From a phage: a stretch of DNA of 56,260 nucleotides. Where the stretch lies: the sequence record PX583170.1, one strand, 5' to 3'. This document shows, in pieces, positions 1 through 56,260 of this stretch (positions are counted from its first letter, which is position 1; every line of letters begins with the position of its first letter). The position numbers and the translations under genes are program-made. The notes under the pieces are model-generated. The model had not been told where the DNA came from. It worked only from the letters and a program-made list of their open reading frames with translations, and did no database searches.

Positions 1-135
1 CGGACTTAAAATACGGTCCCTACCCCAACTTTTTCCTACAGCCTATCGGCTTAATGATAACACCAAGTTAGGCGCTTCGCTTATGAGTCAAGGTCAAAGG
101 CAATCAGAGCACGCTGTTGTAACGAGCTAGTCTTA

Positions 136-157
136 CCATTAGTTGGTTGTGATTATG
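136..157 (+). promoter_or_regulatory. Promoter-motif copy P1 (candidate phage-RNAP promoter) upstream of the RNAP gene
   Basis: ccATTAGTTGGttgtgattatg; shares the CATTAGTTG core with 13 other sites. Confidence 0.4.
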
Positions 158-214
158 AATAGGCTACGCAAGTCTAATCCGTTTCAGTTAAATCATAATC
201 AATTGGAGACTATC

Positions 215-2329
215 ATGACTAATGAAGAATATCGTGCACTGGCTGCTGATGGCGCTCGCTTAAAAGAAGAAGGCCACGGTTGGAAAGACGTGCTTGATAC
301 GATGGACCGTTGCAACCAAATGGTTGATGAAATCACTACTGCTACACAATCCGAAACTAAAACCGAAACTAACTTGGAGACTCGCAAAATGACAACTATC
401 TCAACTCAAACTATCAAATCCGTTGTCCCTGCTATCACGGCTCTGGTATACCGTGCTAAAGAGAAACAGAACTACATGCAGCCTCAGACCTGTGCTATTG
501 CTGCTCTTGCAATCTTCAAGATGATGACCTCATTCACTCGTGATGATGTTGTCCCAGCCATTGCAATGGTTGAGCTGGCTTCTGCTTCTATTGCTGATGC
601 CAACCGTTATAACAACGATTTGAAAGCAATGCACTATGTTGACCCAGCTATCAACCTCATTGGTTTGGCTAAGCACTTTGGCTTCATTACCATGAACGAA
701 GACAAGTCATTCCAACAAACTGATACATGGGTTGAACTGGTTACAACCAAAGACACAGCAGTGCCATTCACTGAGCGTGTTACATCTGAATCTCGTCGCA
801 AGCCTTTCGTTAAAGGTGGCAAAGTTAAGCCATCCAAAACTTTGAAAGCTGCAATCGAATTCCTGCAAGATACTGAGTACCATGTGGAGACTGAGATGGT
901 TCGCATCATCCAGTCCATGCTTGAGCAACGTACCTACGGTGGTTTGCAGATGCCAGAAGCAATCCAGACTGAACTTCATGTTTGGAACAATGCTGTAGCA
1001 ATGATGAATCAGGATAAGCTGTATTCTGACTACTTTGCTGATAACCGTGGTCGCCTGTATCATGTAGCATGTGCTGGCCCTAACCCACAATCCTCTGACT
1101 TTGCTCGTTGCTTGTATTCTCACAATGTTGAGAACATCGTTAAGAAGTTTAACGAAGATGGTTCTACTACCATCGCATACAACATGTTCATGGCAGAGCT
1201 GGAAGATATTTCTGGTGGTGAATGGTGCAGTGCTAAGCGTTTAACTTATGTTGCTCAGAATCCAGCTGGTTCACTTGCTCGCATGATGAACATGCCTAAA
1301 GCTGAACGTCCTTCCAAGCCATTCACTTATGTTCGTCTGGCTCTGGATTGGTTCAAGTTTGAGACTACAGGTGAGTGCGATTCTCGTGTAGGCTTTGGCT
1401 TAGATGCTAAATGTTCTGGTACTCAATATCTGGCATTCATTGCTGGTAACATGGAAATGGCTCGTGCAACAGGTCTGGTTGATTCTGAGACTAAAGCATC
1501 TGACCCATACCAGTTATCTCTTCGTGAACTGTTGAAGTTACTCGACCGTTCTTCAATGAAGCCATCTCCTGAAATCATGGATGAGTTCTTGAATCCGAAA
1601 GCTGGTCGTAAGTTTATCAAAACTCCATACATGGCTATCCAATATGGTGGTGGTAAAGCAGCATTGACTGGTTCTTCTGACTTCATTAGCTACATGACAG
1701 AAGCTCTCCAGATTCCTATGGAGAAAGCTGAGGCATTTGCTGAACTGTGTGTAGAAGCAATCCATAACGCATTGGGTGCTAAGATTAACATGTTCATCGA
1801 GAAAGCTGCTGATGCTGCATACAATCGTTGTGTTGAACTTGGCAAAGAGTACATCACATATCGCCACACTGATGGTCAGGTTGTAATGAAGCCTTGCTTC
1901 CCATCTCGTGAAATCTGTGAGGCATTCAGCATTCGTGTTGATAGTCAAACTCGTGTTATCTTTGGTCAGATTCAGGAGAACAAGCCTTGGACCATTCGTG
2001 AGTCCAATCCAACTAAAGAAGAGTTCAAGCGTACCTTCGTTGTTAACTACATCCAAGGTATTGACGCATTGGTTGCTCGTACTGTTGCAGTTAAAGCTAA
2101 AGAAGCTGGTCTTCGTGGCTTTACTTCAATTCACGATTGTTTCCGTTGCTGCTTAGCTGATGCTCCACGTATGATGGAAGTTATTCGTGCAGCATATGTT
2201 GAAATCTTCGTAACCAACAATCAATTCGAGAATCTGTCTAAGCAACTCGGTGGCATTCAGATGTATCATGAGAACATCGTAACCGAAGAGCTTCTGATGA
2301 GCGAACATGCTTACTACTTCTGTCAATGA
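215..2329 (+). CDS. T7-like single-subunit DNA-dependent RNA polymerase (ORF opens at 143; ATG at 215 has SD ggaga)
   Basis: Motif A-like FGLDAKCSGTQYLAF (T7 DGSCSGIQHF), motif B-like KFIKTPYMAIQYGGG, motif C-like TSIHDCF (T7 HDSF). Shorter than T7 RNAP. Confidence 0.85.
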   Translation: MTNEEYRALAADGARLKEEGHGWKDVLDTMDRCNQMVDEITTATQSETKTETNLETRKMTTISTQTIKSVVPAITALVYRAKEKQNYMQPQTCAIAALAIFKMMTSFTRDDVVPAIAMVELASASIADANRYNNDLKAMHYVDPAINLIGLAKHFGFITMNEDKSFQQTDTWVELVTTKDTAVPFTERVTSESRRKPFVKGGKVKPSKTLKAAIEFLQDTEYHVETEMVRIIQSMLEQRTYGGLQMPEAIQTELHVWNNAVAMMNQDKLYSDYFADNRGRLYHVACAGPNPQSSDFARCLYSHNVENIVKKFNEDGSTTIAYNMFMAELEDISGGEWCSAKRLTYVAQNPAGSLARMMNMPKAERPSKPFTYVRLALDWFKFETTGECDSRVGFGLDAKCSGTQYLAFIAGNMEMARATGLVDSETKASDPYQLSLRELLKLLDRSSMKPSPEIMDEFLNPKAGRKFIKTPYMAIQYGGGKAALTGSSDFISYMTEALQIPMEKAEAFAELCVEAIHNALGAKINMFIEKAADAAYNRCVELGKEYITYRHTDGQVVMKPCFPSREICEAFSIRVDSQTRVIFGQIQENKPWTIRESNPTKEEFKRTFVVNYIQGIDALVARTVAVKAKEAGLRGFTSIHDCFRCCLADAPRMMEVIRAAYVEIFVTNNQFENLSKQLGGIQMYHENIVTEELLMSEHAYYFCQ

Positions 2330-2370
2330 TATTAATTGGTCAAGGATGACCACAAACTTGGAGACTTATA

Positions 2371-2571
2371 ATGAACATTCAACAAATCAATCAAATCGAA
2401 AACTGTTTCAATCCTCATCATACCTGTGACATGAGCAACTTATCTCGTCCTACAGTGGAGGAGACTAAAGACTTCTTAGAATTGTTAGCAGAATATAAAC
2501 AAGAATCGCATGTACTATTGCATGCATATTTGCACAATTCTGGATACTTTGATACAGAAATACCGTTCTGA
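2371..2571 (+). CDS. Hypothetical small protein (66 aa)
   Basis: ATG with SD ggaga 8 nt upstream; followed by a terminator. Confidence 0.5.
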   Translation: MNIQQINQIENCFNPHHTCDMSNLSRPTVEETKDFLELLAEYKQESHVLLHAYLHNSGYFDTEIPF

Positions 2572-2576
2572 TATTT

Positions 2577-2603
2577 GGGAGCTTCGGCTCCCTTTTCTTG
2601 TTT
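2577..2603 (+). terminator. Rho-independent terminator
   Basis: GGGAGC-ttcg-GCTCCC perfect 6-bp stem with UUCG loop, then ttttcttgttt. Confidence 0.75.
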
Positions 2604-2623
2604 CAACTAAGTCGCATAACTCA

Positions 2624-2645
2624 GCATTAGTTGTATGTGAATCTA
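2624..2645 (+). promoter_or_regulatory. Promoter-motif copy P2
   Basis: gCATTAGTTGtATGTGAATcta, directly after the terminator and 22 nt before the next gene. Confidence 0.5.
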
Positions 2646-2666
2646 ATAAACCATTTGGAGCATATC

Positions 2667-2834
2667 ATGTTTACAGTGACCTTAGTAACCTATTATGGCA
2701 AGCAAGTTTGTGAGAAGTTTGAGACTTTGAAAGAAGCCCGTGAGTTTGCAGCTCGTGAAGAGAATATTTATGTAGACTGTGAAATCACAGATGGTGATAA
2801 GCAGTATGAAGTTGTAGCTCCTACACTCAACTGA
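2667..2834 (+). CDS. Hypothetical small protein (55 aa; ORF opens at 2631)
   Basis: ATG at 2667 preceded by tttggag SD; the earlier TTG start lies inside the promoter motif. Confidence 0.45.
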   Translation: MFTVTLVTYYGKQVCEKFETLKEAREFAAREENIYVDCEITDGDKQYEVVAPTLN

Positions 2835-2848
2835 TTCCCAATATTCGG

Positions 2849-2858
2849 ACAATATTGT
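2849..2858. promoter_or_regulatory. Perfect 10-bp palindrome ACAATATTGT (operator-like)
   Basis: Self-complementary; flanked by aatattcgg and gcatgtaatattgt. Confidence 0.35.
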
Positions 2859-2884
2859 TGCATGTAATATTGTCCCGATATTCG

Positions 2885-2906
2885 ACATTAGTTGGATATG
2901 AAGTAA
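2885..2906 (+). promoter_or_regulatory. Promoter-motif copy P3
   Basis: aCATTAGTTGGATATGAAgtaa; followed by hairpin CGGAG-aaata-CTCCG at 2913..2927; no gene for ~1 kb downstream. Confidence 0.45.
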
Positions 2907-3277
2907 AGAATACGGAGAAATACTCCGCATGACATATTGAATCATTCTAGAAACATTCAGCATGTCAGCTTTGAGTTACAGTGTTGTAATGATGTGGCAA
3001 TCATTGAACTCCCTGGGTAGGCCACCTACAGTTCCAGCAACCATGACACAGAGTAGGAATATCTATCCGAAACTTGTACTTCACCTATAGCATGTCTATT
3101 AGCTACAGTATTGTTCCTTCTCCTATTATCAAGGCCCACCCACAAGCCGGGAGATAACTTTGACAAGACTGGAACTTTTGGACATGCTTCTTTCTTTCTA
3201 CAAGAATTTGAAAGAAGAGAAGAAGTCGGACTAAGCCTCTCGTTTTCACGCAGAAGCCGCCCCGATTTTGAGCAACA

Positions 3278-6745: not shown

Positions 6746-6762
6746 AACTTTTGGAGGTATTT

Positions 6763-7284
6763 ATGTTTTACACTGGTGTGGGAAGTCGTGAAACTCCCGG
6801 GCATATTTGCGAACTGCTGACTAAAGTGGCTTCCAAACTGGCCAGACTTGGTTGGGTAGTTCGTACGGGAGGTGCTCAAGGTGCTGACGAAGCATTCCTG
6901 GCTGGCTGCAACGGAAGGACAGAGAACTTTATACCTTGGAATGGTTTTGGAAGTTATGGTGGCGTAGTGCCGGACCTGAATCGAAATTGGGAATACCTGC
7001 AAAGTGTTGAAAACGTAAACCCGCTAATTCACAAGAAAGAGACAAGAAACCTCGACAAATACAGAGGATTTTGGAAACTACAGGCACGAAATGTTAGTCA
7101 GGTACTTGGGCTTAACTTGGACACTCCATCCAAGTTCTGTATCTTGTACGCTCCGACAACATCAACTGGTGTGAGCGGTGGCACCAACACTGCGTACCAG
7201 GTTGCAATGCAGTCTGGAATACCTTGTTTTAACTTATTCGACCCTGCTATAGTGGCAAGGTTTGAGAAATTTATATCTGAGTGA
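6763..7284 (+). CDS. DprA/LOG-like (SLOG superfamily) Rossmann-fold protein, tentative
   Basis: YTGVGSRETP ... VVRTGGAQGADEAF resembles the DprA Rossmann core as recalled; SD ggagg. Confidence 0.3.
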   Translation: MFYTGVGSRETPGHICELLTKVASKLARLGWVVRTGGAQGADEAFLAGCNGRTENFIPWNGFGSYGGVVPDLNRNWEYLQSVENVNPLIHKKETRNLDKYRGFWKLQARNVSQVLGLNLDTPSKFCILYAPTTSTGVSGGTNTAYQVAMQSGIPCFNLFDPAIVARFEKFISE

Positions 7285-7319: not shown

Positions 7320-7340
7320 CCAATTAGTTGGATAAGAGGG
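7320..7340 (+). promoter_or_regulatory. Promoter-motif variant P7
   Basis: ccAATTAGTTGGATaagaggg. Confidence 0.35.
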
Positions 7341-7409
7341 ACAAAGCTATTCCGTGGTTAGCAATGTCGCTGAAACTTAAACTGTAATTAACTTAAGAGA
7401 ATCTTAATC

Positions 7410-7787
7410 ATGGCACAATATTCAGATGTAAACACTGGCATCATCGGCCCAAATGGCTTCAAGAAAGACCCAAAACATCCTGACGTTCGTGGACGTATTA
7501 ACGTTGACGGAATCTGGTATTGGGTATCTGGCTGGAACAAGCAAGCAAATGGTAATGAATTTACCTCGCTGGCACTCACCATCATGACTCAAGAACAGGT
7601 CGATGAAATGATGCGTAAGCGTGAGGAGAAAGCTAAAGCCAAAGCTCAACCTCAAGCTGCCGCTCAACAGCAACAGCAACGTCAACAGCCAACCCAGCAG
7701 CAGCAAACTCAGGCACAACAGCCTCAGAGTAATTCTGCATACAATCCGAACGAGCCGAAAGACTTCGACGACGACATTCCGTTCTAA
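7410..7787 (+). CDS. Small protein ending in the bacterial SSB tail DFDDDIPF (SSB-tail mimic or minimal SSB)
   Basis: ~70-aa N-terminal domain, Gln-rich linker, C-terminus KDFDDDIPF; the E. coli SSB tip is DFDDDIPF. Confidence 0.55.
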   Translation: MAQYSDVNTGIIGPNGFKKDPKHPDVRGRINVDGIWYWVSGWNKQANGNEFTSLALTIMTQEQVDEMMRKREEKAKAKAQPQAAAQQQQQRQQPTQQQQTQAQQPQSNSAYNPNEPKDFDDDIPF

Positions 7788-7908
7788 TGGAGATGCCCTA
7801 TGAAAATCTTATGTTTTATAGGGCTACATAATTGGGAAATTTCACACGAAAACGATTATGTAACCATTTGGGTTTGCAAACACTGTGCAGCAATGCGTGA
7901 GGAATATC

Positions 7909-8811
7909 ATGGCAAATAATGTTGTTGAAATACCAGCCAATTTAGTTAAAACTGGCGACATTGTATTTCACAAAGACAGAGAATATTTAATTGTACACAT
8001 CAACAGATTGAGTGATGTAGTTCAATTGCAGCACTCTGGTGGATTCTTTAACTTTGAATTGGGCCGATTAGTCAAAATAGTGGAGCGTCCTGAGGCGAAC
8101 TTTTTTGCAAAACTTGTCACAACACGAGCAGTGTTGGCATATCAGGTGCGTCCTGGCAACACTTTGTCTTATGGAACTAAATTATTTAAGATAAAGGAGG
8201 TCAAAGACCTTGGGGAAATGCCTGAAAATGTTGTTCGACTAGTCCATGAAACAGGCTACTTCGACTTTGCACCCAACCGGATAGTCCATGTTGTTAACAC
8301 GCCGTCACCAGCTTTAGGAACCCCAACAATCAAACCTCCAAGCCAAATAAATCCAACATTCCTTCCTTACGAGGAAGTAAAACCATTCTCAGACGAAGAG
8401 GATGTTAAAGGCGTTGATGTAGAAGTTGGCGATGTTATTTGGTACAAGGGTAATTGGGCAACTGTTACAAACGTGTATAAACATCCAAACTCTCCGTACA
8501 ATAAAGTCAATATTGACTACGATGGCGTAAAAGGTTTGCAAGTGCGCCTGACGTTAACCGGAACTTATTCGAGAAAGGTAAAAGCAGTAATGGAAACATT
8601 AAATATTCAAAATGCAATCGAAGCACAACGTATTCTTCTGCAAAAGCTGGAGCAAATGCTGGACCTACAGCAACTTGCACCAACAGAAGATGGCAAGATT
8701 GCAATCGGCAACTGCAACATTCGCGTGGACAAGGCATCAATCACTAAAGCCGCACGCGATGAAATGAAAGTTGCCGCAAGCAAATCCGCAGAGCTTATCA
8801 AGAAACTGTAA
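7909..8811 (+). CDS. Hypothetical protein (300 aa; ORF opens at 7885)
   Basis: ATG at 7909 with SD gaggaa. Confidence 0.5.
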   Translation: MANNVVEIPANLVKTGDIVFHKDREYLIVHINRLSDVVQLQHSGGFFNFELGRLVKIVERPEANFFAKLVTTRAVLAYQVRPGNTLSYGTKLFKIKEVKDLGEMPENVVRLVHETGYFDFAPNRIVHVVNTPSPALGTPTIKPPSQINPTFLPYEEVKPFSDEEDVKGVDVEVGDVIWYKGNWATVTNVYKHPNSPYNKVNIDYDGVKGLQVRLTLTGTYSRKVKAVMETLNIQNAIEAQRILLQKLEQMLDLQQLAPTEDGKIAIGNCNIRVDKASITKAARDEMKVAASKSAELIKKL

Positions 8812-8999
8812 TTAACAGAGGTCATTCCACTTCGAGTGGCCTCGATTAATTATTGGAGGTTATATGTGGGACATATATCTTGAAGGTGTTGATGAACCAA
8901 TTTCAACACTTAATACACAATTTATTATAGTTGGGTGTGCAATTCTTTATAAAGGTAAGCTACACACTGTATCTAAAATAGTTCAGAGGCATTAATTCC

Positions 9000-52701: not shown

Positions 52702-53168
52702 AAGAGTAATATTAGGAATGCGTAAAGTTCAAAACCAAATGGTACATGGTCGGTCAACTGTACCTCCTTCGGAGAAGGTACCTGGATAGAAATTCGTTCA
52801 TGGTCGGTCAGCTGTATCTAGCCGAAATTTGTTCGAACAGTTGTCTGACTATGAAATAAATTTTTTTTTATAATTTTTTTTTTATTTTTAAATATTGCTA
52901 CAGAATTAATGAGACTAGAATTCGTAACAAAGCTACGAGACTCGAATTGTTTCAATATTAACGAGACTCAATCTGTGACAATATTATAATTTTTATTTTT
53001 GGGCCAGCGGGGAGGGGAAGCCCAACGTCCTATCGGACTTAAAATACGGTCCCTACCCCAACTTTTTCCTACAGCCTATCGGCTTAATGATAACACCAAG
53101 TTAGGCGCTTCGCTTATGAGTCAAGGTCAAAGGCAATCAGAGCACGCTGTTGTAACGAGCTAGTCTTA

Positions 53169-53190
53169 CCATTAGTTGGTTGTGATTATG
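53169..53190 (+). promoter_or_regulatory. Promoter-motif copy P1 (right repeat copy)
   Basis: Identical to 136..157. Confidence 0.4.
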
Positions 53191-53247
53191 AATAGGCTAC
53201 GCAAGTCTAATCCGTTTCAGTTAAATCATAATCAATTGGAGACTATC

Positions 53248-55362
53248 ATGACTAATGAAGAATATCGTGCACTGGCTGCTGATGGCGCTCGCTTAAAAGA
53301 AGAAGGCCACGGTTGGAAAGACGTGCTTGATACGATGGACCGTTGCAACCAAATGGTTGATGAAATCACTACTGCTACACAATCCGAAACTAAAACCGAA
53401 ACTAACTTGGAGACTCGCAAAATGACAACTATCTCAACTCAAACTATCAAATCCGTTGTCCCTGCTATCACGGCTCTGGTATACCGTGCTAAAGAGAAAC
53501 AGAACTACATGCAGCCTCAGACCTGTGCTATTGCTGCTCTTGCAATCTTCAAGATGATGACCTCATTCACTCGTGATGATGTTGTCCCAGCCATTGCAAT
53601 GGTTGAGCTGGCTTCTGCTTCTATTGCTGATGCCAACCGTTATAACAACGATTTGAAAGCAATGCACTATGTTGACCCAGCTATCAACCTCATTGGTTTG
53701 GCTAAGCACTTTGGCTTCATTACCATGAACGAAGACAAGTCATTCCAACAAACTGATACATGGGTTGAACTGGTTACAACCAAAGACACAGCAGTGCCAT
53801 TCACTGAGCGTGTTACATCTGAATCTCGTCGCAAGCCTTTCGTTAAAGGTGGCAAAGTTAAGCCATCCAAAACTTTGAAAGCTGCAATCGAATTCCTGCA
53901 AGATACTGAGTACCATGTGGAGACTGAGATGGTTCGCATCATCCAGTCCATGCTTGAGCAACGTACCTACGGTGGTTTGCAGATGCCAGAAGCAATCCAG
54001 ACTGAACTTCATGTTTGGAACAATGCTGTAGCAATGATGAATCAGGATAAGCTGTATTCTGACTACTTTGCTGATAACCGTGGTCGCCTGTATCATGTAG
54101 CATGTGCTGGCCCTAACCCACAATCCTCTGACTTTGCTCGTTGCTTGTATTCTCACAATGTTGAGAACATCGTTAAGAAGTTTAACGAAGATGGTTCTAC
54201 TACCATCGCATACAACATGTTCATGGCAGAGCTGGAAGATATTTCTGGTGGTGAATGGTGCAGTGCTAAGCGTTTAACTTATGTTGCTCAGAATCCAGCT
54301 GGTTCACTTGCTCGCATGATGAACATGCCTAAAGCTGAACGTCCTTCCAAGCCATTCACTTATGTTCGTCTGGCTCTGGATTGGTTCAAGTTTGAGACTA
54401 CAGGTGAGTGCGATTCTCGTGTAGGCTTTGGCTTAGATGCTAAATGTTCTGGTACTCAATATCTGGCATTCATTGCTGGTAACATGGAAATGGCTCGTGC
54501 AACAGGTCTGGTTGATTCTGAGACTAAAGCATCTGACCCATACCAGTTATCTCTTCGTGAACTGTTGAAGTTACTCGACCGTTCTTCAATGAAGCCATCT
54601 CCTGAAATCATGGATGAGTTCTTGAATCCGAAAGCTGGTCGTAAGTTTATCAAAACTCCATACATGGCTATCCAATATGGTGGTGGTAAAGCAGCATTGA
54701 CTGGTTCTTCTGACTTCATTAGCTACATGACAGAAGCTCTCCAGATTCCTATGGAGAAAGCTGAGGCATTTGCTGAACTGTGTGTAGAAGCAATCCATAA
54801 CGCATTGGGTGCTAAGATTAACATGTTCATCGAGAAAGCTGCTGATGCTGCATACAATCGTTGTGTTGAACTTGGCAAAGAGTACATCACATATCGCCAC
54901 ACTGATGGTCAGGTTGTAATGAAGCCTTGCTTCCCATCTCGTGAAATCTGTGAGGCATTCAGCATTCGTGTTGATAGTCAAACTCGTGTTATCTTTGGTC
55001 AGATTCAGGAGAACAAGCCTTGGACCATTCGTGAGTCCAATCCAACTAAAGAAGAGTTCAAGCGTACCTTCGTTGTTAACTACATCCAAGGTATTGACGC
55101 ATTGGTTGCTCGTACTGTTGCAGTTAAAGCTAAAGAAGCTGGTCTTCGTGGCTTTACTTCAATTCACGATTGTTTCCGTTGCTGCTTAGCTGATGCTCCA
55201 CGTATGATGGAAGTTATTCGTGCAGCATATGTTGAAATCTTCGTAACCAACAATCAATTCGAGAATCTGTCTAAGCAACTCGGTGGCATTCAGATGTATC
55301 ATGAGAACATCGTAACCGAAGAGCTTCTGATGAGCGAACATGCTTACTACTTCTGTCAATGA
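53248..55362 (+). CDS. T7-like single-subunit RNA polymerase, second copy
   Basis: Protein identical to 215..2329. Confidence 0.85.
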   Translation: MTNEEYRALAADGARLKEEGHGWKDVLDTMDRCNQMVDEITTATQSETKTETNLETRKMTTISTQTIKSVVPAITALVYRAKEKQNYMQPQTCAIAALAIFKMMTSFTRDDVVPAIAMVELASASIADANRYNNDLKAMHYVDPAINLIGLAKHFGFITMNEDKSFQQTDTWVELVTTKDTAVPFTERVTSESRRKPFVKGGKVKPSKTLKAAIEFLQDTEYHVETEMVRIIQSMLEQRTYGGLQMPEAIQTELHVWNNAVAMMNQDKLYSDYFADNRGRLYHVACAGPNPQSSDFARCLYSHNVENIVKKFNEDGSTTIAYNMFMAELEDISGGEWCSAKRLTYVAQNPAGSLARMMNMPKAERPSKPFTYVRLALDWFKFETTGECDSRVGFGLDAKCSGTQYLAFIAGNMEMARATGLVDSETKASDPYQLSLRELLKLLDRSSMKPSPEIMDEFLNPKAGRKFIKTPYMAIQYGGGKAALTGSSDFISYMTEALQIPMEKAEAFAELCVEAIHNALGAKINMFIEKAADAAYNRCVELGKEYITYRHTDGQVVMKPCFPSREICEAFSIRVDSQTRVIFGQIQENKPWTIRESNPTKEEFKRTFVVNYIQGIDALVARTVAVKAKEAGLRGFTSIHDCFRCCLADAPRMMEVIRAAYVEIFVTNNQFENLSKQLGGIQMYHENIVTEELLMSEHAYYFCQ

Positions 55363-55403
55363 TATTAATTGGTCAAGGATGACCACAAACTTGGAGACTT
55401 ATA

Positions 55404-55604
55404 ATGAACATTCAACAAATCAATCAAATCGAAAACTGTTTCAATCCTCATCATACCTGTGACATGAGCAACTTATCTCGTCCTACAGTGGAGGAGACTA
55501 AAGACTTCTTAGAATTGTTAGCAGAATATAAACAAGAATCGCATGTACTATTGCATGCATATTTGCACAATTCTGGATACTTTGATACAGAAATACCGTT
55601 CTGA
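55404..55604 (+). CDS. Hypothetical small protein, second copy
   Basis: Identical to 2371..2571. Confidence 0.5.
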   Translation: MNIQQINQIENCFNPHHTCDMSNLSRPTVEETKDFLELLAEYKQESHVLLHAYLHNSGYFDTEIPF

Positions 55605-55609
55605 TATTT

Positions 55610-55636
55610 GGGAGCTTCGGCTCCCTTTTCTTGTTT
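55610..55636 (+). terminator. Rho-independent terminator, second copy
   Basis: Identical to 2577..2603. Confidence 0.75.
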
Positions 55637-55656
55637 CAACTAAGTCGCATAACTCA

Positions 55657-55678
55657 GCATTAGTTGTATGTGAATCTA
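55657..55678 (+). promoter_or_regulatory. Promoter-motif copy P2 (right repeat copy)
   Basis: Identical to 2624..2645. Confidence 0.5.
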
Positions 55679-55699
55679 ATAAACCATTTGGAGCATATC

Positions 55700-55867
55700 A
55701 TGTTTACAGTGACCTTAGTAACCTATTATGGCAAGCAAGTTTGTGAGAAGTTTGAGACTTTGAAAGAAGCCCGTGAGTTTGCAGCTCGTGAAGAGAATAT
55801 TTATGTAGACTGTGAAATCACAGATGGTGATAAGCAGTATGAAGTTGTAGCTCCTACACTCAACTGA
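55700..55867 (+). CDS. Hypothetical small protein, second copy
   Basis: Identical to 2667..2834. Confidence 0.45.
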   Translation: MFTVTLVTYYGKQVCEKFETLKEAREFAAREENIYVDCEITDGDKQYEVVAPTLN

Positions 55868-55917
55868 TTCCCAATATTCGGACAATATTGTTGCATGTAA
55901 TATTGTCCCGATATTCG

Positions 55918-55939
55918 ACATTAGTTGGATATGAAGTAA
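55918..55939 (+). promoter_or_regulatory. Promoter-motif copy P3 (right repeat copy)
   Basis: Identical to 2885..2906. Confidence 0.45.
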
Positions 55940-56260
55940 AGAATACGGAGAAATACTCCGCATGACATATTGAATCATTCTAGAAACATTCAGCATGTCA
56001 GCTTTGAGTTACAGTGTTGTAATGATGTGGCAATCATTGAACTCCCTGGGTAGGCCACCTACAGTTCCAGCAACCATGACACAGAGTAGGAATATCTATC
56101 CGAAACTTGTACTTCACCTATAGCATGTCTATTAGCTACAGTATTGTTCCTTCTCCTATTATCAAGGCCCACCCACAAGCCGGGAGATAACTTTGACAAG
56201 ACTGGAACTTTTGGACATGCTTCTTTCTTTCTACAAGAATTTGAAAGAAGAGAAGAAGTC

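Follow-up and report, generated by a model that had tools for sequence, protein, structure and literature searches.

A small phage protein that carries the C-terminal tip of Escherichia coli SSB on a predicted non-OB domain

Introduction

What role might be played by a small phage protein whose last eight residues are those of SSB, the E. coli protein that binds single-stranded DNA? The question is raised by the gene at positions 7410–7787 of sequence record PX583170.1, a 56,260-nucleotide stretch of phage DNA that is referred to here, at its full length, as the window. A first-pass annotation of the window had suggested that the product could recruit host SSB partners to phage DNA or compete with host SSB for them, a proposal that is plausible and partly supported by the sequence comparisons described below. 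In our interpretation, which we hold with moderate confidence, the protein is the phage's own dimeric single-stranded DNA (ssDNA)-binding protein, built on a domain other than the OB-fold, and its host-identical tip docks proteins that are partners of SSB. The tip of E. coli SSB is described as the docking site for many genome-maintenance proteins (Shereda et al., 2008, as cited in PMC5686142 and PMC5928155).

The window represents a Carltongylesvirus (Chaseviridae) of the phiEcoM-GJ1/ST32/flopper type, and the region is 85–93% identical in nucleotide sequence to the Carltongylesvirus phages flopper, Ecp_YSF, ST32 and phiEcoM-GJ1 and to the Yersinia PYps phages. The gene set of these phages includes a T7-like RNA polymerase, a family A DNA polymerase, a primase-helicase, a ligase and a 5'-3' exonuclease. 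The annotation of the protein as an SSB is already in the databases. The part that appears not to have been described is that this widespread 'SSB' family is predicted to consist of a small β4(-α) domain with a linker and tip of the bacterial type, and not of an OB-fold.

Architecture and C-terminal tip

The ATG-initiated open reading frame (ORF) read from the window at 7410..7787 (+, stop codon included) encodes an SSB-like protein of 125 amino acids (14.3 kDa, isoelectric point 5.8) with the C-terminal end ...NPNEPKDFDDDIPF*. Its N-terminal folded domain (residues 1–78; 7410..7643, +) is ordered from about residue 9 to residue 77 in the predicted structure and has an isoelectric point of 9.05. 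This is followed by a Gln/Ala/Pro-rich linker (residues 79–113; 7644..7748, +) with 17 Gln in 35 residues, which is disordered as judged by composition and by a predicted local distance difference test score (pLDDT) of 38–54, and by the acidic C-terminal tip NEPKDFDDDIPF (residues 114–125; 7749..7784, +), as placed by alignment to PDB entry 1eqq. The layout of an N-terminal domain of about 70 residues, a Gln-rich linker and a tip is the one that the first-pass annotation had proposed.

A phmmer search against PDB sequences aligns residues 79–125 with residues 130–178 of E. coli SSB (1eqq/4mz9). In the 1eqq alignment the last eight residues, DFDDDIPF, are identical to the E. coli tip, as the first-pass annotation had stated; the chance of such an eight-residue identity is about 20^-8. 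The N-E-P that precedes the tip is also common to E. coli SSB once a one-residue gap is allowed (NEP-KDFDDDIPF compared with NEPPMDFDDDIPF), and the linker aligns weakly with the disordered linker of the E. coli protein. The protein has the arrangement by which a bacterial SSB is recognized at this end, namely a disordered low-complexity linker (here with pLDDT below 55) and then an acidic D-D-D-I-P-F at the extreme C-terminus.

Across 19 Chaseviridae homologues Phe119, Asp120, Ile123, Pro124 and Phe125 are invariant (F-D-x-x-I-P-F), and 89 of 148 distant family representatives terminate in [ILVMA]-P-[FWY]. Taken together, these observations indicate that the tip is under selection. The linker differs between homologues in both length and sequence. 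Recent capture of the tail from a host ssb gene was considered and ruled out, since a blastn search with the linker and tail gave no nucleotide match in all complete E. coli genomes; the absence of nucleotide similarity to these genomes indicates a tip that has been kept by selection and not recently captured.

We note that several unrelated family members do not end at the IPF tip but continue into a short, recurrent extension, such as ...IPFAPEFR, ...IPFAPEVR, ...IPFSAEFR or ...IPFAPIRGLV (loci L017, L026, L033, L030 and L018; proteins P0116, P0179 and P0013). Among these, P0013 is a close Chaseviridae relative and runs on past the tip as ...IPFAPIGLQEGRRYLHCI. Such extensions are odd if docking requires a free C-terminal Phe carboxylate. 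The tip also seems to vary with host taxon, with LPF in Bacteroidetes bins and EPF or PPF in some Actinomycetota-like sequences; this is suggestive, but we do not rely on it because the taxa come from the labels of metagenome-assembled genome bins.

A second ending of this kind is found elsewhere in the window. A 66-residue ORF at 2371..2571 (+), repeated at 55404..55604, ends in ...SGYFDTEIPF* and fits the F-D-x-x-I-P-F core. It lies directly downstream of the T7-like RNA polymerase gene (143..2329) and matches PHROG 20790, to which no function is assigned. N4-like Gamaleyavirus phages encode homologues of it (G7C gp1.2, just upstream of RNAP1) that terminate in ...ETGCPF and so keep only the final P-F.

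Predicted structure of the N-terminal domain

With a shallow alignment, AlphaFold 2 gave a moderate model with a core pLDDT of 78–90, and a Foldseek search of the PDB with this first model returned nothing at E < 0.1. Prediction of the 78-residue domain from an alignment of 114 diverse sequences gave a pLDDT of 94.2 and a predicted template modelling score of 0.77. The predicted elements are antiparallel strands at residues 9–14, 26–32, 35–46 and 49–58 followed by a helix at residues 61–77, with no OB barrel. The β-β-β-β-α repeat topology of the PC4-like superfamily is thus present in the prediction, and we describe the modelled domain as PC4-like in topology (PC4/Pur-alpha/Whirly-like), a term that refers to topology only and claims no homology.

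In the model the N-terminal domain does not adopt an OB-fold. This bears out the suspicion in the first-pass annotation that it is too short for a full SSB OB-fold, and a conventional full-length phage SSB, which would have spoken against that view, was not found. The window protein has no Pfam match, SSB (PF00436) included, so that the OB domain of a bacterial SSB is not seen in it, and hhalign comparisons of the family profile with OB domains gave 0.2% for E. coli SSB, 0.3% for T7 gp2.5 and 0.1% for CspA. Matches to the Shiga toxin B subunit, which appeared in searches of Pfam and the PDB and in two family-profile searches, were rejected as chance matches to a motif; the other matches were to the SSB tail only.

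Strand alternation and conservation would place Trp38, Ser40, Trp42, Lys44, Phe51 and Ser53 on one face of the sheet and the hydrophobic residues Val39, Leu54 and Leu56 on the opposite face. An exposed face that is both aromatic and basic, if the model is correct, would have the appearance expected of an ssDNA-binding sheet.

Protein family and genomic context

A word-indexed search identified 34 close homologues, all of 115–134 amino acids, in which the three parts recur and F-D-x-x-I-P-F is invariant. The family was extended to 1,883 cluster representatives at E ≤ 1e-3, with clusters defined at 50% identity, by an exhaustive search that used a profile of the N-terminal domain. The family consists of small proteins that share the signature YDNTNxG..F.N..K....HPD..G..NV.G..YW.SGW.K....G..F.SL, after which come a low-complexity linker that varies and a tip that is acidic. 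Pfam contains no model for the family. The top match of the exhaustive search, P0035 (1158 residues), contains 21 near-identical repeats of about 52 residues with GYWYSSW; we regard it as a translated repeat, and hence as a spurious, repeat-driven match and not as a relative. A typical family member gave no tblastn match to plasmids.

Two tandem copies of the β unit are present in 17 of 148 relatives, the 'SSB' of Vibrio phage VP5 among them. This would fit a unit that acts in pairs, which is how PC4-like domains operate (PMC7549692). Three proteins of about 80 residues (L043:3893-4150, L044:3863-4150 and L045:3830-4129) have a W-x-K..G..Y-x-S-G hairpin ahead of the FRNDRKEKDNHPDY segment and resemble a circular permutation of the β unit in which the acidic linker and IPF tip are kept.

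The genes that surround family members are varied. In the Z-genome phages VP5, SH-Ab 15497 and PMBT28 the family gene adjoins DNA polymerase I/DpoZ; in each of the three (L004:4995-5471, L005:5001-5300 and L006:4995-5336, respectively) it lies between or beside the genes for a DpoZ-type DNA polymerase I and PurZ. It is found near PolA in VpV262 and directly after Erf in Microcystis phage Mae-JY35. Among ten bacterial loci examined, which were retrieved with a 12-sequence alignment of the family, six have the gene next to a YqaJ or phrog_5715 exonuclease, ERF or a P2-type GPA replication initiator. In the window the gene follows one for a DprA-like protein. What these neighbours share is a part in ssDNA metabolism.

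The SSB-like protein is the only annotated SSB of Carltongylesvirus phages. A second, canonical SSB in the phage of the window was considered and rejected, as a tblastn search of the window with E. coli SSB found just the tail.

Existing annotation and its origin

The window protein matches PHROG 7364, 'single strand DNA binding protein', with an E value of 8.7e-43 over residues 1–91 (profile positions 1–93). The SSB name is borne by PHROG 7364 and 18154 and, in GenBank, by VpV262 p21, VP5 gp29, phiEcoM-GJ1 gp15, flopper gp10 and ST32 ORF19; the window protein is an orthologue of these genes, and the last three carry the label 'ssDNA-binding protein'. This label can be followed back through the records to ORF24 of Vibrio phage VpV262: the phiEcoM-GJ1 entry refers to YP_024987, which is the SSB of Vibrio phage VP5, and VP5 in turn refers to VpV262 p21. 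The VpV262 record goes no further than 'similar to single strand DNA binding protein C-terminus'. As the chain ends at this remark, the database name rests on the C-terminal tail, the feature that the first-pass annotation had singled out. The SSB name in PHROG and GenBank is without experimental or structural content.

The family is absent from the SSB groups of a 2016 survey of the replication proteins of double-stranded DNA viruses, which are E. coli SSB-like, gp2.5, gp32, ICP8, RPA, N4/DUF669, LEF3, I3 and SIRV2 gp17 (PMC4889955). Our literature search found no biochemical study of any family member and nothing useful on an SSB C-terminus 'mimic'. One member has been used in cells: co-expression in E. 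coli of the protein from Salmonella phage PMBT28 with the phage helicase and DpoZ raised the incorporation of 2-aminoadenine (dZ) into plasmids (PMC12944874; bioRxiv 10.1101/2025.10.22.683976).

Proposed function and alternatives

We propose that the basic N-terminal domain of about 70 residues, a four-stranded antiparallel sheet with a helix, probably pairs into a dimer, and that this dimer would coat phage ssDNA through the exposed sheet face that carries Trp38, Ser40, Trp42, Lys44, Phe51 and Ser53. The disordered Gln-rich linker would then display the acidic tip, identical to the C-terminus of host SSB, for docking to proteins that recognize this terminus. These could be host genome-maintenance proteins, proteins of the phage itself (the T7-like polymerase, the primase-helicase and the DprA-like mediator), or both. 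The identity of the tip with that of the host makes host partners likely and some competition with host SSB unavoidable. There are also precedents in which the tail of a phage SSB recruits proteins of the phage: HK620 SSB requires its last six residues for Sak4 (PMC5928155), and T7 gp2.5 requires its terminal Phe to interact with the polymerase. What the analysis itself establishes is the sequence, the identity of the tip, the conserved architecture, the predicted fold and the genomic associations; dimerization, ssDNA binding and the choice of docked partners are inferred.

Four other explanations were weighed, and all are less consistent than an ssDNA-binding protein with the combination of a conserved aromatic domain and varied replication and recombination neighbourhoods. 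The protein might coat no ssDNA and act instead as an SSB-tail decoy, its tips titrating host SSB partners (e.g. ExoI, RecJ, RecQ, PriA, Ung and Pol III chi) and so stopping host replication restart or shielding phage DNA ends. Its tip is indeed identical to that of the host, it is small, and its gene lies behind a phage promoter-like motif in a region upstream of the replication genes where the ORFs are small and for the most part unannotated; the F-D-x-x-I-P-F ending of the second small ORF at 2371..2571 would also suit a tip-presenting strategy. However, a decoy has no need for a conserved, dimerizing, basic domain, and the N-terminal domain is strongly conserved, has an aromatic and basic surface and is predicted to belong to a fold class typical of ssDNA binders. 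Family members are moreover linked to polymerases and to recombination modules across phages and prophages of very different kinds, and the searches found no further phage SSB for the phage's own replisome. A genuine ssDNA-binding protein is favoured over a pure competitor by this genome context, by the ssDNA-binding type of the predicted fold and by the fact that the protein is the only SSB candidate found in the phage, and we consider a decoy unlikely. The N-terminal domain could alternatively bind a phage protein (the polymerase, the helicase or the DprA-like mediator) and not DNA, with the tip tethering that protein to host SSB partners or competing with host SSB on them. Such an adaptor would be expected to keep one conserved partner, yet the neighbouring gene varies widely (PolA, Erf, YqaJ, GPA, DprA-like) and ssDNA is what these neighbours have in common, which leaves the adaptor quite improbable.

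The PC4-like predicted topology is also compatible with an ssDNA-binding cofactor of the phage RNA polymerase, comparable to eukaryotic PC4, LUZ7 Drc or N4 SSB in its late-transcription role, in place of a replication SSB. The phage uses a T7-like single-subunit RNA polymerase with its own promoters, and some phage ssDNA-binding proteins are described in PMC7145618 as RNA polymerase cofactors. Against this, family members occur within replication or recombination modules of phages and prophages that have no phage RNA polymerase, and the bacterial-type SSB tip is a hallmark of genome-maintenance docking, so that a dedicated transcription role is very doubtful. The least probable explanation, to which we give hardly any weight, is that the domain is a highly diverged conventional OB-fold mis-modelled by AlphaFold, for example one in which two four-stranded units close into an OB-like barrel on dimerization. 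The short motif that hidden Markov model and hhalign comparisons find in common with the OB-fold Shiga toxin B subunit points in this direction, as do the tandem relatives without a helix, and other atypical phage SSBs (N4/DUF669) have been argued to be diverged OB-folds (Kazlauskas et al., 2016; PMC4889955).

Several points weigh against the interpretation of the protein as a PC4-like ssDNA-binding protein. The first concerns the profile link to PC4. The hhalign comparison with the human PC4 core gave 74%, a score reached by none of 400 shuffles, but the link is unspecific: a short V-D-G-x-E-Y-W motif that also gives this score brings Stx2B, a protein of different fold, to 92%, whereas MoSub1, a true homologue of PC4, reaches 0.1% and an alignment of four PC4 sequences 30%. 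Since Stx2B outscores PC4 and MoSub1 scores almost nothing, the score, which is driven by a short V/I-D-x-x-E-Y-W motif, is not counted here as evidence of homology to PC4. The Pfam matches listed for the window protein and for its relatives include no PC4-type family, and among the 120 best matches listed for a protein search that started from a PC4 alignment there was vertebrate PC4 alone. Beyond the Chaseviridae branch the helix shows poor conservation, and no helix lies between the repeats of the tandem relatives; the family core may accordingly be a bare four-stranded unit that assembles differently from PC4. The only Pfam signal in the family is to DUF736 (PF05284, function unassigned), in 15 of 114 relatives with a best E value of 2.7e-4. 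It falls below the gathering score in all of them, and the window protein itself has no DUF736 match, but the recurrence of this similarity may point to a wider superfamily. The literature on DUF736 yielded nothing useful; a study of Mesorhizobium integrative and conjugative elements reportedly mentions it. Lastly, the rise in dZ incorporation in the PMBT28 experiment was seen for the SSB, the helicase and DpoZ in combination (PMC12944874).

With these points in mind, we put forward a broader proposal only tentatively. The family could be a separate and widespread structural class of phage SSB, based on a paired four-stranded PC4/Whirly-like sheet, which acquired the linker and tip of bacterial SSB independently. 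The Chaseviridae protein, with its host-identical tip, could in that case plug phage ssDNA into the whole E. coli SSB interactome while competing with host SSB.

If the fold and ssDNA binding prove true, the family would be a large unrecognized class of non-OB SSBs, with about 1,900 clusters in phages of Proteobacteria and beyond, including the aminoadenine (Z-genome) phages. It would also amount to a natural experiment in which the SSB linker and tip behave as a module that is portable and can be joined to a DNA-binding domain of unrelated type, and it would allow the SSB functions of the tip to be told apart from those of the OB core. The annotation of the family as SSB in phage genomes currently rests on eight residues, and a known domain would permit a proper family model. 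The question is relevant to defence systems that sense phage SSBs and to recombineering or Z-DNA expression systems in which such proteins are co-expressed.

Comparison with known systems

Comparison with E. coli-type SSB (a PF00436 OB domain, a disordered linker and MDFDDDIPF) indicates the same three-part layout, with a low-complexity Q/P/A linker and an acidic tip, and the presumed role of the phage protein, ssDNA coating combined with a docking hub, is likewise similar. The two differ in the folded module, which in the phage protein is modelled as a non-OB β4-α unit of about 70 residues compared with about 115 in E. coli SSB, and probably in assembly, the phage protein being a likely dimer and E. 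coli SSB a tetramer.

The PC4-like ssDNA binders (human PC4, MoSub1, BPSL1147, YdbC/DUF2128, Pur-alpha and Whirly) are among the closest known systems. A PC4 homologue encoded by phage T5 is on record (PDB entry 4bg7; Steigemann, Schulz and Werten, 2013, as cited in PMC7549692).

SSBs of the T7 gp2.5 type (the DUF2815 group, including Enc34 ORF6) are likewise found beside a T7-like replisome of family A polymerase and primase-helicase, and they share an acidic C-terminal tail that ends in Phe and in T7 contacts the polymerase and helicase. Gp2.5 and Enc34 ORF6 are OB-folds of about 200–230 residues (PMC5686142). Neither the OB-fold with a long capping helix nor the similarity to gp2.5/DUF2815 that would mark a member of this group was found in the phage protein (hhalign 0.3%; no Pfam match).

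Gene neighbourhood and other sequence features

The gene is preceded by a phage-type promoter-like motif, ATTAGTTGGATAAGAGG, at 7323..7339 (+), 70 nucleotides 5' of the ATG, in agreement with the earlier placement of a promoter copy just upstream. It is an exact match, with a putative promoter function. The window contains three more copies at three or fewer mismatches compared with 0.14 expected by chance; under a stricter pattern there are four copies, two of which lie within the duplicated window ends. In phiEcoM-GJ1, a 'putative phage promoter 3' is annotated at the position co-linear with 7323–7339. Direct reading of the sequence places a weak Shine-Dalgarno-like AAGAGAA at 7395..7401 (+), 8 nucleotides 5' of the ATG. 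For ORF19, the ST32 orthologue, the same AAGAGAAtcttaatcATG is given in the ST32 paper (PMC6266442).

Directly upstream of the SSB-like gene lies the DprA-like recombination-mediator gene (6751..7284, +; 177 residues), given here as context, which matches PHROG 768 with an E value of 8.9e-50 and has a weak Pfam DNA_processg_A match (E value 0.0013). It is annotated in flopper as gp11, and no gene is annotated at that position in phiEcoM-GJ1. If the two genes are a pair, they would form a small recombination module. Past the next two ORFs (7800..7919 and 7885..8811) a consensus scan detects a terminator-like hairpin at 8818..8843 (+) with a 10-bp stem that includes five GC pairs, which, we tentatively suggest, may close the transcription unit beginning at 7323.

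The two ends of the window, 1..3227 and 53034..56260, are 100% identical over 3,227 bases, which implies a unit genome of 53,033 bp. The identical ends may be either a long direct terminal repeat or the result of assembly wrap-around. In the relatives 4HA13 and Mangalitsa a terminal repeat is annotated over the region that matches the window ends.
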